Notes under the pieces: generated by a model
Seen by the model: only the letters and a program-made list of their open reading frames with translations
Told to the model about the DNA's origin: nothing
Database searches by the model: none
DNA from: Escherichia coli
Lineage (GTDB): Bacteria; Pseudomonadota; Gammaproteobacteria; Enterobacterales; Enterobacteriaceae
Length of the DNA stretch: 64,000 nucleotides
NCBI RefSeq assembly: GCF_048403405.1
Contig: NZ_CP183129.1
Direction: 5' to 3' (one strand)
Made by a program: the position numbers and the translations under genes
In this document: piece by piece, positions 15,340 to 62,982 of the stretch
Numbering within the stretch: the stretch's first letter is position 1
Layout of the letters: every line of letters starts with the position of its first letter

Positions 15340-15476
15340 TCATGATCGTGCTATTTCGCTACAGAATAAGGGAAAATGGCGGTTTTACTTTGATATACAT
15401 CATCAGGAAGGCATAGCGTACATCGTCCTTTAGAGGTAGAAGAAAATAGTTTGTATCCTCAATATTGGCAGGTTAA

Positions 15477-58163: not shown

Positions 58164-59732
58164 TTAGCGTGCCGGCTGAGTAGTCGTGGAAGACTGCTCA
58201 AAGTGATAGCGACCGGTTTTCAGGCTGCTTGGGCCGAGGCGTGCAAACTTGAACATTAAGAACAATTCTGCCACCAGGAACAGGGTATACAGGCCGCAAA
58301 TCAGCACCATTGAGAAGATGAGATCGCCTGCGGTCAGTGACGAGTTCGCCACAGCTGTCGGCAGCACTTCACCGATAGCCCACGGTTGGCGGCCATATTC
58401 AGCCACGAACCAGCCCGCTTCTACAGCAATCCACGGCAGCGGAATACCATACAGCGCGGCGCGCAGCAGCCATTTTTTCTCGCCAATGCGGTTGCGGATG
58501 ACACTCCAGAAAGAGAGCGCGATGATTGCCAGCAGCAGGAAGCCACACGCCACCATGATACGGAACGCGAAGTACAGCGGCGCTACACGCGGAATGGAGT
58601 CTTTGGTTGCCTGTTGAATCTGCGCTTCAGTCGCATCAGCCACGTTTGGCGTATAGCGTTTCAGCAGCAGACCGTAACCGAGGTCTTTCTTCATGCTATT
58701 GAACTGGTCACGAACCGCCTGGTCGGTAGAACCAGAACGCAGTTGTTCGAGCAGAGAGTACGCCTTCATCCCGTTACGAATGCGTTCTTCATGCTGCACC
58801 ATCAGTTCTTTCAGGCCGATAACTGGAGTATCCACGGAACGCGTTGCAATGATGCCCAGCGCGTAAGGGATCTGGATCGCAAATTTGTTCGTCTCCTCTT
58901 CCTGATCAGGAATGCCGAACAGAGTAAAGGCAGCAGGCGCAGGTTGCGTTTCCCACTCGGCTTCAATAGCAGCCAGTTTGGTTTTCTGCACGTCGCCCAT
59001 TTCGTAACCAGATTCATCACCCAGAACAATAACAGACAGAACGGCAGCCATACCGAAGCTGGCAGCGATAGCAAAGGAGCGTTTAGCGAAGGCGAAGTCA
59101 CGACCTTTCAGCATATACCATGCGCTGATACCGAGGATGAACATCGCGCCAGTCACATAACCAGACGCTACAGTGTGAACGAATTTCACCTGAGCAACCG
59201 GGTTAAGCACCAGCTCGGAGAAGCTCACCATCTCCATACGCATAGTTTCAAAGTTGAAATCGGACGCGATTGGGTTTTGCATCCAGCCGTTCGCAACCAG
59301 AATCCACAGTGCGGACAGGTTTGAACCGAGCGCCACCAGCCAGGTGACACACATATGCTGAACTTTACCCAGACGATCCCAACCGAAGAAGAACAGACCT
59401 ACAAAGGTGGATTCGAGGAAGAAGGCCATCAGACCTTCGATTGCCAGCGGCGCACCGAAGATATCCCCTACATAGTGGGAATAGTAAGACCAGTTAGTCC
59501 CGAACTGGAACTCCATAGTCAGACCGGTAGCCACACCCAGAGCGAAGTTGATACCAAACAACTTGCCCCAGAACTTGGTCATATCTTTATAAATCTGTTT
59601 GCCGGAAAGGACGTAGACCGTTTCCATAATGGCCAGCAGGAACGCCATACCGAGCGTCAGTGGCACAAAAAGGAAGTGGTACATCGCGGTCAAGGCAAAC
59701 TGTAAGCGCGACAGTTCGACTATATCTAACAT
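58164..59732 (-). CDS. cydA: Cytochrome bd-I ubiquinol oxidase subunit I
   Basis: ORF 58164-59735; start at [12 protein letters not shown] (59732), 522 aa. Confidence 0.96.
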
Positions 59733-60017
59733 CATGACTCCTTGCTCATCGCATGAAGACTCCGAGAGTGAACCCCGTTAGAAAGGGTCACACGCATGCC
59801 CCAATACAAAATTATTTGCTCGCCTCTATCGTTGCCATTTCATCAAAAGAGGAAAAGACAATGATAAAAAAGTTACAAATATGTTAATGAATAAACCAAA
59901 TTGATCCCGTAATTATATTACGCCGCAAAATCCTTACAATAAACAGGTTTTTATTGAGCAAATTTGCATTTTTCGACAGTGATCAATTTATAGCGAAATT
60001 GTCACGATCTCACCAAT

Positions 60018-60031
60018 TTGATCTACGACAA
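60018..60031 (-). promoter_or_regulatory. FNR/CRP-family half-consensus box (TTGATCTACGACAA) in the cydAB control region
   Basis: Matches the TTGAT half of TTGAT-N4-ATCAA; about 285 bp upstream of cydA. Confidence 0.4.
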
Positions 60032-60069
60032 TTTATCGTGTTTTGCAGATTTTTTTCAAGAATTAAAAA

Positions 60070-60083
60070 TTGATTTATATCAA
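60070..60083 (-). promoter_or_regulatory. Perfect FNR consensus box TTGATTTATATCAA in the cydAB control region
   Basis: Exact TTGAT-N4-ATCAA; cydAB is known to be FNR/ArcA controlled with a long leader. Confidence 0.6.
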
Positions 60084-60537
60084 AACCAACCAAATATGTT
60101 AATTATGTATAAACCATAGATCATTGGTGATTTTATTGTTAATTTATTGTGAAATATTTATGCAACACAATTATTACAATGAAAAGGTATAGATAAAAAA
60201 CCAGTGTTTTATTTAACAGAACCGCCTTATCCACTTTTTATAATACCAATTGATTAGATTAGCCAATTTGTTGCTATTTTACATAACATATTTTTATCAA
60301 AGTTAATTGATTGTTGCGTTTATGAGCACCGGCCGTAAGCCCGTTATGTTATTGTTTCATTAGTAATAATCACTTAAATGTATCGATGAAACAGGTATGA
60401 CTTAGCGGGAGTGATTGTTTCTGAGTGAACAGAGACCACTTTCGCCTGATAAATGAAAAATGAGCGATTTTTGCAAGTTAGTTTTTCTATAGCCGAGTAC
60501 GCTCAGCGCCTCGCTTGATTACAATGAGGTTGCTGCT

Positions 60538-61482
60538 ATGAGTCCTGATAATATCAGTTCTGCTGTCAATCGCTTCTCAGGTTGGCCATCTAATGATCCT
60601 CTAAAAACAGATAAAGAATCAATGACATCACCCATGACTGTGCAGGTAATAAAGATGATTGCCGCCATCCTTGACCCACATCGGATAGTCGTTGGAATCG
60701 ATACACTTTATACAACGCAGCGCGAAACATTTACCTCAGAGAGTCAACAGCTCATTGAATCAGCATTGCAAACACTTCATGTGATGAATTTAAATAACCT
60801 GGAAACAAATCTCGATGAGGAAGGTCACTATCTGGCTTTTGGATATAACGTTGACACTCCTGACAGAATAACCGTTTCTGCTTATAATGAAAAAAAGCCT
60901 GGCTGCTATGGCCAATGTCTTTTAATACAGGATGACGAAACAGACTTATTTAACCTGATAAAAGTTAAAATTTTTGAAGCCAGGCATAATTATGTCGCTC
61001 AATTGATGAGCGATCCGGAATTTATGTTCAAATTTAGTTATAGCGCTCAACAAAATAGATTAGAACCTCATCTTCTGGTTCCCACTTATTTCCCTCTAAA
61101 AACAAACGAACCGGTTACGCAAGAGGATGTACTGTTACTTTATCGTTTCTTTAAAATGGATGGTGATTTTAATATATTAACATCAGATGAATACATGAGT
61201 ATCATGACACCTCTGATGAAGTGTGAGCGCAGCATCCACGACCACAACAGGTATGTGACGGGCAAAGATACCCTTCTTCTGGACTATCCTCCTTCTGGTA
61301 ACCAGATATATTTCCATATTTTTCCTGACGAATCAGCAACACTAGTCCTTTATTTTTCAAACAATGACATTGAATGTTTCGTCTTTGAAAGAGATATTCC
61401 GAGCCAGTATCGCTTTTTCAAAATGTTTACCAATCTGGCACTGGTTATTGATCAGTTAACCGATGCCAATCAAATACTTTAA
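60538..61482 (+). CDS. Hypothetical protein, 314 aa, no family recognised (AT-rich islet ORF-A)
   Basis: Intact ORF with GAGG 8 nt upstream of ATG; Ser/Thr/Pro-rich N-terminus without signal peptide; codon usage AT-skewed. Confidence 0.6.
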   Translation: MSPDNISSAVNRFSGWPSNDPLKTDKESMTSPMTVQVIKMIAAILDPHRIVVGIDTLYTTQRETFTSESQQLIESALQTLHVMNLNNLETNLDEEGHYLAFGYNVDTPDRITVSAYNEKKPGCYGQCLLIQDDETDLFNLIKVKIFEARHNYVAQLMSDPEFMFKFSYSAQQNRLEPHLLVPTYFPLKTNEPVTQEDVLLLYRFFKMDGDFNILTSDEYMSIMTPLMKCERSIHDHNRYVTGKDTLLLDYPPSGNQIYFHIFPDESATLVLYFSNNDIECFVFERDIPSQYRFFKMFTNLALVIDQLTDANQIL

Positions 61483-61562
61483 TTTTTATATATTCCCTGT
61501 GGCAAATATTGCTAAACAATGCCCGGGGATTAATTTTTATTACTCACGGAAAGATTTAAATA

Positions 61563-61985
61563 ATGATCCCATCTCAAATCTCTTTCAACACCCTTCCTGT
61601 CAATGCAACATACGCTTCAGAGACAACAGTTGACACACAAAAATTCTCTGACATCCTCTACTCAGCGGGGTGTTCCCTAAAGGATCTGGCTTATTTGAGC
61701 AGATGTCTGGCATCAATACATCCGACTATCGCCAAAAACATTTATGAAACAGAAAATCTCAGCGATCAAAAATTACTACATATTGATTGCCGTAGTACAA
61801 ATGAAATCAAGATAAATATCTTTTTTGGTCAACAACGAGAAGGATTAATTGAAATTAGTTCTGACACAGTCATTTTTTCGATACTGTCTTCATTGATTGA
61901 CTCCACCATTTCTAAATTTCAACACCAAAACCCCGTTAACGGTTCTGTAAATCCTGACCTATTGTATGAGGATTATACTGATTAA
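61563..61985 (+). CDS. Hypothetical small acidic protein, 140 aa, no family recognised (AT-rich islet ORF-B)
   Basis: Intact ORF 80 bp downstream of ORF-A, same strand; about 17 acidic versus 9 basic residues; Ser/Thr-rich N-terminus. Confidence 0.55.
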   Translation: MIPSQISFNTLPVNATYASETTVDTQKFSDILYSAGCSLKDLAYLSRCLASIHPTIAKNIYETENLSDQKLLHIDCRSTNEIKINIFFGQQREGLIEISSDTVIFSILSSLIDSTISKFQHQNPVNGSVNPDLLYEDYTD

Positions 61986-62532
61986 ATCCCTCCTGTCGCG
62001 AAAAATGGCCTGCGTTATTGCCAGACGTAATAAAACTTTTGATTAACGTTTCTCGTACTGGTAGCACCTTCATGTACTTTTCTTTTTTACGAAAAATCAA
62101 AAGAGCTAACAAAGGTCATAATTCGCATGAATCATTAATTATTTGTTATTTTCAACATTATTTTTACATTAAGCAGAGATGAATTGCAGTGAAATTCGAC
62201 TTAACTTTTATGAAATGCATTTACTCATGGCTAAAGCCACGTCACAAAAATGCAAATTAGAAGTAGATCACAAATATCTCAATACATCAAATCAAGTTAA
62301 TTTTAAAAATTTAATATTCATGACATTAGTTGACATAACACACTGAATTATAATGAGAATTTGAAAACACACTTTAAACAATCATTTCCCGAAAGACATT
62401 TTGAAAATAGATCAATTGCAACATTACGGTCAGATAAAGACACTCCTGTGATATTAAACCTGTGCCGTTATGAACGGCCATAAATACGACGTGTGTAACT
62501 TATTTTACTCTCTGTCTTACAAAGGATTACCC

Positions 62533-62982
62533 ATGAAGAAAGCAACACTTGTGATTGGCGTTATTGGCGCGGACTGCCATGCAGTAGGCAATAAAGTTCT
62601 GGACCGCGTTTTTAGCAACCATGGCTTCAGAGTCATTAATCTGGGCGTAATGGTCAGCCAGGACGAATATATTGATGCTGCCATTGAAACTGGTGCTGAC
62701 GCGATTGTCGTCTCCTCTATCTATGGGCATGGCGATATCGATTGTCTGGGCATGCGCGAACGCTGCATTGAGCGTGGGCTGGGTAACATCCTGCTCTATG
62801 TGGGCGGTAACCTGGTGGTCGGAAAACATGACTTCGCTGACGTGGAAACCAAGTTCAAAGAGATGGGATTTGATCGCGTCTTTGCCCCAAGTCATGACTT
62901 AGAAGATGTTTGTCAGCTGATGGCCCACGATATCAACCAACGTCATGACGTTGATACTCGCATTCTTGAAGAGGCAATCTGA
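62533..62982 (+). CDS. glmS: Glutamate mutase sigma (S) subunit / methylaspartate mutase S chain, B12-binding
   Basis: ORF 62470-62982; start at [21 protein letters not shown] (62533) with AAGGA upstream; DxHxxG cobalamin-binding motif (DCHAVG); strongly resembles clostridial MutS/GlmS. Symbol refers to glutamate mutase, not glucosamine-6-phosphate synthase. Confidence 0.85.

Follow-up and report, generated by a model that had tools for sequence, protein, structure and literature searches.

The stretch of E. coli DNA analyzed here (64,000 nucleotides, hereafter the window) carries on its minus strand the gene order tolA–tolR–tolQ–ybgC–ybgE–cydX–cydB–cydA, followed by an 805-bp intergenic region. 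The last gene of this series, cydA (58164-59732, minus strand, annotated ATG at 59732), encodes subunit I of cytochrome bd-I. Past the intergenic region, the plus strand carries ORF-A (60538-61482), ORF-B (61563-61985, 140 aa) and a methylaspartate-pathway cluster, glmS–glmL–glmE–mal and onward. ORF-A is divergent from cydA and encodes a 314-aa orphan, hypothetical protein WP_001305591.1 in the annotation. Over 59700-61600, the window matches the O158:H23 strain CFIAFB20140388 at 100% identity; in that strain, the methylaspartate-pathway cluster fills the gap to sucD, replacing the mngRAB genes of K-12. At least three upstream gene contents were observed next to cydA, namely mngRAB, a TPR protein and the ORF-A islet. 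The intergenic region between cydA and ORF-A is markedly AT-rich, with a GC content of 24-30% over 59800-60300.

Two FNR-type boxes lie within this region, both assigned to the minus strand. Fnr-2 (60070-60083) reads TTGATTTATATCAA, or TTGATATAAATCAA in the reading direction of cydA, and Fnr-1 (60018-60031) reads TTGATCTACGACAA, or TTGTCGTAGATCAA in the reading direction of cydA. An earlier note on this DNA had reported both strings at these positions, and both were verified in the window; it had placed them 50 bp apart, while the measured distance is 52 bp, start to start and center to center, leaving a gap of 38 bp. The string TTGATTTATATCAA is the sole exact TTGAT-N4-ATCAA in the 64 kb, where 0.09 occurrences would be expected, and 7 of 100 shuffles of the window contained at least one such match. 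The string TTGATCTACGACAA, a full 14-mer with one perfect half, carries two mismatches to the FNR consensus. Sites with at most two mismatches are as frequent in the window as chance predicts (42 against 34 expected), so the motif match of Fnr-1 alone is meaningless.

To score the boxes, an FNR weight matrix was built from 61 ChIP-bound K-12 sites (Myers 2013 Table S6, PMC3688515), with the two cydA sites excluded. Fnr-2 (19.9 bits) and Fnr-1 (14.3 bits) were the best and third-best matches of the 64 kb, both within the range of the 61 training sites (11.9-21.1 bits). The second-ranked match, at 15390-15403, is the ortholog of the known ybhK/moaA FNR site, and its recovery therefore indicates that the matrix detects real sites. 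Two further strings were considered and rejected as FNR sites: an FNR-like string near ORF-A (60515-60528), which lacks conservation, has a score of 4.2 bits, and the invariant TTGATCACTGTCGA at 59973-59986 reaches merely 5.1 bits.

Alignment with K-12 gave both boxes a precise identity. Fnr-2 aligns base for base with K-12 TTGATATTTATCAA at U00096.2 position 770333, and Fnr-1 aligns base for base with K-12 TTGTTCTCGATCAA at U00096.2 position 770385. For K-12, Myers 2013 (PMC3688515) predicts FNR sites at 770333 and 770385, where FNR gives a ChIP-seq peak, and classes cydAB as directly FNR-repressed, with a site listed at -53.5. A comparison with the K-12 cydA elements had been proposed in the earlier note as a check; with both boxes falling on these two positions, its assignment of FNR boxes to the cydAB control region was borne out.

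The published value of -53.5 sets the K-12 P1 start at 770393, whose counterpart in the window, carried over through the alignment, lies at about 60023 on the minus strand. Fnr-2 would accordingly be centered at -53.5 of cydAB P1 and Fnr-1 at about -1.5, the latter figure being arithmetic from the 52-bp spacing and the -53.5 of Myers 2013, with an inferred, K-12-based P1 start. A promoter consensus scan independently places the -35 and -10 elements of P1 between the boxes, with an expected start at about 60023; this predicted core (60030-60059, minus strand) comprises the -35 hexamer TTGAAA (60059-60054), an 18-bp spacer and the -10 hexamer TAAATT (60035-60030). From P1, the cydA 5' leader (59733-60022, minus strand) would span about 291 nt; in K-12, the leader holds further promoters, P2-P5, making five promoters in all (PMC3037301). 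An Rfam scan of 59500-62700 at an E-value of 1 or lower gave no match, leaving both the cydA leader and the DNA preceding ORF-A free of known RNA elements. The earlier note had also named a distant cydAB promoter under FNR and ArcA, which agrees with P1 lying about 291 nt from the cydA ATG and with the predicted ArcA boxes nearby.

The layout closely follows that of K-12 P1, with the same locus, the same order and the same 52-bp center-to-center spacing. The box centers lie 292.5 (Fnr-1) and 344.5 nt (Fnr-2) upstream of the cydA ATG in the window, compared with 289.5 and 341.5 nt in K-12. The half-sites of Fnr-2 are identical in the two, the spacer being ATAA in the window and ATTT in K-12, and Fnr-1 likewise combines an imperfect left half with a perfect right half (TTGTCGTAG in the window, TTGTTCTCG in K-12). 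The -10 hexamer TAAATT between the sites is shared, whereas the -35 hexamer is TTGAAA in the window and TTGGAA in K-12; by matrix score, both FNR sites are slightly stronger in the window. Class I and class II FNR-activated promoters use the same DNA motif, centered from about -61.5 outward in the former and at -41.5 in the latter; unlike these, the cydA-side boxes would sit at repressor positions (-1.5 and -53.5).

On this evidence, we consider the boxes, with a probability of roughly 93%, to represent the Fnr-2 and Fnr-1 operators of the minus-strand cydAB promoter P1, with cydA as the gene served. The FNR sites of the cydAB control region, at 60018-60083, are thus already known. Those at P1 in K-12 were reportedly described by Cotter et al. 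in 1997 and Govantes et al. in 2000, and the names Fnr-1 and Fnr-2 are said to appear in the title of the latter.

The variability of the boxes was then assessed across seven Escherichia alleles. The half-sites of Fnr-2 are invariant, with the spacer varying among ATAA, ATTA, GTAA and ATTT; all seven alleles keep ATCAA as the right half of Fnr-1, with either TTGTC or TTGTT on the left. Half-sites thus stay fixed while spacers and flanks drift. To extend the comparison, the pattern TTGAT-N4-ATCAA-N38-TTG-N6-ATCAA was scanned in 100,044 species genomes, yielding at least 120 loci. The tandem with the same 52-bp spacing, followed by a CydA N-terminus about 290 nt downstream, was found in at least 50 species of at least about 20 genera; as the pattern demands the tandem, these counts give its spread and not the frequency of its absence. 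The genera include, among others, Citrobacter, Enterobacter, Klebsiella, Raoultella, Kosakonia, Kluyvera, Phytobacter, Lelliottia and Shimwellia, and the tandem also lies upstream of cydA in Salmonella enterica subsp. arizonae. Matches outside Enterobacteriaceae, such as doubly palindromic pairs in Pseudomonas, were set aside as unrelated loci.

Among the enterobacterial matches listed, the left half TTGTC, as found in the window, is the commonest form of Fnr-1, which therefore represents a typical operator form and not a decayed half-site. The box at 60018-60031 had been labeled a half-site in the earlier note; this label does not suit a full 14-mer of the typical family form, scoring 14.3 bits against 13.5 for its ChIP-verified K-12 ortholog. 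Motif quality, K-12 orthology, position relative to the predicted P1 and conservation of the layout across Enterobacteriaceae are all direct observations on these sequences.

For ArcA, a box matrix was taken from Park et al. 2013 Table S3 (PMC3798270), leaving out the three cydA boxes. At a threshold of 12 bits it gave 10 matches in the 64 kb, 7 of them inside 59870-60317. The first predicted box, AAGTTACAAATATGTTAA at 59870-59887 (plus strand, 20.2 bits), lies downstream of P1, aligns with K-12 AGGTTGCAAACATGTTAA as the ortholog of K-12 cydA3, and is kept in 47 species. A cluster at 60096-60179, just upstream of Fnr-2, contains boxes at 60096-60113, 60125-60142, 60136-60153 (20.6 bits) and 60162-60179; it is the positional equivalent of K-12 cydA2 (770260-770311, 22-73 bp upstream of Fnr-2). 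The distal boxes at 60283-60317 (60283-60300, minus strand, 17.3 bits; 60300-60317, plus strand, 14.0 bits) provide a positional analog of K-12 cydA1, the DNA there being no longer alignable with K-12. Measured from P1, the distal box spans -260 to -277, with the cydA orientation kept, and K-12 cydA1 spans -285 to -302. The window, L004, L005 and LF82 share the distal box unchanged. A further predicted ArcA box, of 18.7 bits, lies upstream of glmS at 62152-62169.

The ArcA matrix is inflated in AT-rich DNA, and an AT-rich background lowers the distal boxes to 10.6-11.4 bits. In 47 enterobacterial species, the three regions average 13.3 (cydA3-like), 15.3 (cydA2-like) and 15.8 bits (distal), against 6.1, 6.3 and 3.9 bits in composition-matched shuffles. 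Three ArcA ChIP-seq regions, cydA1, cydA2 and cydA3, are listed at K-12 cydA (Park 2013 Table S2, PMC3798270). Like the window, K-12 has three direct-repeat clusters at equivalent P1 positions (about +140, just upstream of Fnr-2 and about -270). Just cydA3 and part of cydA2 remain alignable, and the distal site of the window lies about 25 bp nearer to P1. The cydA2 and cydA3 boxes score 20.6 and 20.2 bits in the window versus 13.0 and 15.3 in K-12, whereas the distal box is weaker (17.3 bits versus 20.2 for K-12 cydA1). ArcA-P footprints at K-12 cydA were reportedly obtained by Lynch and Lin in 1996. The predicted clusters at 59870-60317 match the K-12 ArcA-P regions of cydAB by position, and the whole region is, as judged from its predicted elements, the ordinary oxygen-control region of cydAB.

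Extrapolating from K-12, a mechanism can be proposed. Under anoxia, [4Fe-4S]-FNR dimers would occupy Fnr-1 and Fnr-2, and both dimers would lie on the same face of the DNA, because the sites are 52 bp, or five helical turns, apart. Fnr-1 would cover the start of transcription together with the edge of the -10 element, and Fnr-2, at -53.5, would sit just upstream of the -35 element; joint occupancy would repress P1. ArcA-P on the flanking clusters (59870-59887, 60096-60179 and 60283-60317) would counter H-NS silencing of the tract of 24-30% GC, in line with the activation of cydAB by ArcA mainly through disruption of H-NS (Park et al. 2013, PMC3798270). The combination of FNR repression with relief of H-NS silencing by ArcA-P would set the maximum of cytochrome bd at low (microaerobic) oxygen. 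Binding of FNR and ArcA, the transcription start and repression are attributed to the window strain from K-12 experiments, all of them on the K-12 allele, which is 79.5% identical to the control region of the window; quantitative behavior may differ.

The genes cydA and cydB match K-12 at 99.0% and 99.2% identity, respectively; across the 376 nt preceding cydA, the figure is 79.5%. By stretch, identity amounts to 96% over 59733-59815, 55% in 59816-59875 and 74% in 59991-60108; near 60108, about 25 bp upstream of Fnr-2, homology with K-12 ends. Sister Escherichia species carry alleles 95-99% identical to that of the window, and in 46 of 49 comparisons with other genera the window allele is nearer than the K-12 allele; the K-12-type allele is therefore the outlier, and that of the window looks like the ancestral form in Escherichia. 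About 3181 of 5425 complete E. coli genomes fall in a band of 80-90% identity, which includes the K-12-type allele (82.5%). Relative to K-12, the control region of the window has a stronger Fnr-2, two of three ArcA regions stronger, a better -35 element and a replaced distal half.

Switching of intergenic regions, a form of horizontal regulatory transfer in E. coli, is attributed to Oren et al. 2014 in a passage of Thorpe et al. 2018 (PMC5890482). It involves a near-identical core operon with divergent upstream alternatives tied to differing gene content, as likewise seen at cydAB, and the divergence upstream of near-identical cydAB genes fits such switching by its sequence pattern. The resemblance is partial: Fnr-1, Fnr-2, P1 and the leader are still alignable at cydAB, the layout being retained and not replaced. 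A search of the literature for cydA named as a case of intergenic switching found none.

ORF-A itself exhibited a narrow distribution, being found in 1134 of 5426 E. coli genomes, with a GC content of 33-45%. No Pfam family was detected above noise for ORF-A or ORF-B. A search of 5.8 billion proteins returned only five clusters, near-identical or representing a 65% homolog, and an exhaustive search of 1.84 billion representatives with ORF-A returned merely fragments of ORF-A itself; in both large searches, its relatives were confined to Escherichia. The AlphaFold2 model of ORF-A has a mean pLDDT of 47.7 and was unusable for a fold search. Looking up ORF-A and ORF-B in the literature by their O157 locus tags yielded nothing relevant.

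In a sister Escherichia species, the 65%-identical homolog, of the same length, likewise points away from cydA, across an intergenic region of 804 bp. There, cydA is 94% identical, the next gene is a different one of no assigned function, and sucD follows. This species has no glm cluster, and ORF-A is therefore an older neighbor of cydA and not a part of the glutamate-mutase islet. Comparison with the homolog (dN/dS 0.43) indicates a real but fast-evolving gene. In Escherichia sp. MOD1-EC7003, ORF-A is broken across three reading frames.

Directly upstream of ORF-A lies a block of 140 bp (60398-60537, plus strand) with a Shine-Dalgarno sequence GAGG at 60526-60529. Every sequence carrying ORF-A (window, L004 and L005) also has this block in conserved form. 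In LF82 and R3, window-type DNA extends to about 60397 and is followed by unrelated DNA without ORF-A; hence, 60398-60537 is a block travelling with ORF-A. From this distribution, it is likely ORF-A's own upstream region, the place of its promoter and 5' UTR. Promoter scans of 60398-60537 identified none. One weak lead at most is a sigma-28-like GCAAGTTA-n11-GCCGAGTA at 60473-60499, rejected with the first two bases of its -35 element wrong. The sigma-28 consensus is TAAAGTTT-n11-GCCGATAA, and a T-to-C change at position 1 of the -35 element abolished activity of the aer promoter (PMC2859248). The core of the sigma-28-like string, AAGTT-N12-GCCGA, occurs twice in the window, and one natural variant carries GCCGG.

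Several other explanations of the boxes were weighed against their role as P1 operators. That they are chance motifs in AT-rich DNA, devoid of a regulatory role, would accord with the chance-level frequency of two-mismatch sites across the window and with a base composition that favors TTGAT/ATCAA-like strings. Both boxes are, however, exactly orthologous to two ChIP-verified K-12 sites, their half-sites are invariant though the surroundings diverge to 74% identity, and their spacing and distance to cydA are kept in at least 50 species. The comparative data effectively refute chance, to which we assign a vanishingly small probability; it is orthology and position, rather than motif statistics, that exclude it. 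A different proposal takes the boxes as functional and shared, so that FNR at Fnr-2 or Fnr-1 would act directly on a plus-strand promoter into ORF-A and ORF-B. ORF-A is indeed divergent, the 805-bp intergenic arrangement is kept in one sister Escherichia species, and, judged by eye, a -10-like TATAAA at 60108-60113 would imply a plus-strand start, itself hypothetical, relative to which Fnr-2 falls near -41.5 to -43.5. This hexamer was nevertheless rejected as the -10 element of a class II FNR promoter: it is not conserved, reading TATAGA in L004, from a sister species, and TGTGAA in LF82, and its stretch is taken up by the predicted ArcA box cluster serving cydAB. The center of Fnr-2 lies 461.5 bp from the ORF-A ATG, ORF-A starting 455 bp beyond the box. 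In 60084-60537, all plus-strand promoters of the consensus scan stay below 9/12 matches, and every plus-strand candidate of a looser matrix scan scores at most 7 bits, at unsuitable distances. The same stretch thus contains no plus-strand promoter for ORF-A at an FNR-compatible distance (41.5 bp, or at least 61.5 bp in helical steps). A perfect TATAAT at 60239-60244 is conserved and was rejected as the ORF-A promoter, as it comes without a -35 element and lies 165 bp from Fnr-2. The tandem boxes, moreover, occur in at least 50 species, nearly all of them without ORF-A (boxes without ORF-A are found in K-12, LF82, R3 and at least about 48 other species), and ORF-A has its own conserved 140-bp upstream block; ORF-A is always accompanied by the boxes because it always adjoins cydA. 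Direct FNR control of ORF-A from the boxes is, by the comparisons made here, unsupported, and we judge such shared control very improbable. The extension of the FNR boxes to ORF-A in the earlier note accordingly finds no support, given the distance, the outcome of the promoter scans, the species with boxes only and the separate upstream block.

An indirect coupling is less remote, in which ORF-A would follow oxygen through an H-NS filament covering about 59800-60400 that ArcA-P would disrupt from the distal boxes. These boxes (60283-60317) are separated from the ORF-A ATG by 221-255 bp, so that the disruption could reach as far as the ORF-A promoter, strong predicted ArcA boxes extend to 60317 within the very AT-rich tract, and ArcA activates cydAB mainly by disrupting H-NS (Park 2013, PMC3798270). 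ORF-A is itself AT-rich and taxonomically restricted, as is typical of H-NS-silenced genes, and the 18.7-bit box upstream of glmS points in the same direction. Against this stand the purely inferential nature of the coupling and the AT-inflation of the ArcA scores, with the distal boxes at 10.6-11.4 bits under an AT-rich background; we consider it unlikely. The suggestion in the earlier note that oxygen-responsive regulators could affect the islet genes therefore found no support as regards direct FNR action, while an indirect effect of ArcA-P and H-NS may be retained as a doubtful candidate.

Together, our results indicate that the boxes rediscover a region that is already the most closely studied example of oxygen control in the respiratory chain of E. 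coli, which carries little weight in itself. They also provide a clean negative, giving no ground for FNR control of ORF-A or of the glutamate-fermentation islet; the places of interest for control of ORF-A are its own 140-bp upstream block, ArcA and H-NS. Cytochrome bd is important in gut colonization and in nitric oxide tolerance. We tentatively raise, as an idea with the odds against it, that the roughly 40% of complete E. coli genomes that may carry the ancestral-type allele (including O157:H7 and the O158:H23 of the window) might have a differing oxygen curve of cytochrome bd and/or low-oxygen-responsive ORF-A/ORF-B and glutamate-mutase operon, the operon through the ArcA box at 62152-62169 and ORF-A/ORF-B through the ArcA/H-NS tract. 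From the allele comparison, the cydAB control region of K-12 appears to be a divergent allele of a minority-lineage type. Because it diverges (79.5% identity) from the sister-species-type allele, quantitative models of cytochrome bd based on K-12 may not carry over directly to EHEC and other strains.

Alignment of the cydAB control region (59733-60108) with the corresponding K-12 sequence gave an identity of only 79.5%, against 99% for cydA and cydB, with a patch at 59816-59875 falling to 55%; homology to K-12 stops near 60108. Sister Escherichia species share the window-type control allele at 95-99% identity, and because of this it is the K-12 allele that looks like the replaced one. Judged from these comparisons, a core respiratory operon has here apparently undergone intergenic-region switching.

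Within this region, the string TTGATCACTGTCGA (59973-59986, cydA reading direction), centered at about +43.5 from the inferred cydAB promoter P1, carries a perfect TTGAT half and is nearly invariant among Escherichia alleles, one base being changed in K-12 and in the sister species. It scored just 5.1 bits as an FNR site with our FNR matrix and may belong to a downstream promoter. The second-best match to this matrix in the window, TTGATATACATCAT at 15390-15403 (16.0 bits), gives, when reverse-complemented, the K-12 ybhK/moaA FNR site ATGATGTATATCAA, which is ChIP-verified, and its distance from cydA matches that of the K-12 site. Paired perfect TTGAT-N4-ATCAA boxes with the same 52-bp spacing as the cydA pair were also observed in several Pseudomonas genomes (L025, L026, L071, L079 and L081). 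These pairs, presumably Anr sites, bear no relation to cydA; the one in P. borbori has an Hsp20-like gene on one side and a molybdopterin oxidoreductase on the other.

Protein searches identified ORF-A and ORF-B, located on the other side of the control region, as paired orphan genes confined to Escherichia (60538-61985 in the window; 6001-8683 in L004, from a sister species; 11731-13121 in L124). The position of ORF-A, divergent from cydA, is retained in a sister species lacking the glutamate-mutase cluster. The gene is fast-evolving, with 65% amino-acid identity to its sister-species homologue versus 94% nucleotide identity for cydA, and in Escherichia sp. MOD1-EC7003 it has become a pseudogene. 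The conserved ORF-A-specific upstream block contains a sigma-28 (FliA)-like motif, GCAAGTTA-n11-GCCGAGTA (60473-60499, plus strand), which would put a start approximately 30 nt ahead of the ORF-A ATG. The first and second bases of its -35 element are off consensus, and its GCCGA core is disrupted in one natural variant.

Past the window end, in L002, from the strain identical to the window, fumD of the glutamate-fermentation cluster is interrupted by the IS3-family element ISEc31 (22613-25526 in L002). FumD is a mesaconase (PMC4682846); since the insertion splits its gene, the strain probably has a broken glutamate-fermentation pathway. ORF-B and glmS are separated by a 550-bp gap, in which the ArcA matrix predicted a strong ArcA-type box, ATGTAAAAATAATGTTGA (62152-62169, minus strand, 18.7 bits), which ranks third within the window even with correction for an AT-rich background. 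The glutamate-mutase operon starts at 62533, approximately 365-380 bp downstream of the box. This predicted box may tie the glutamate-fermentation genes to anaerobiosis.
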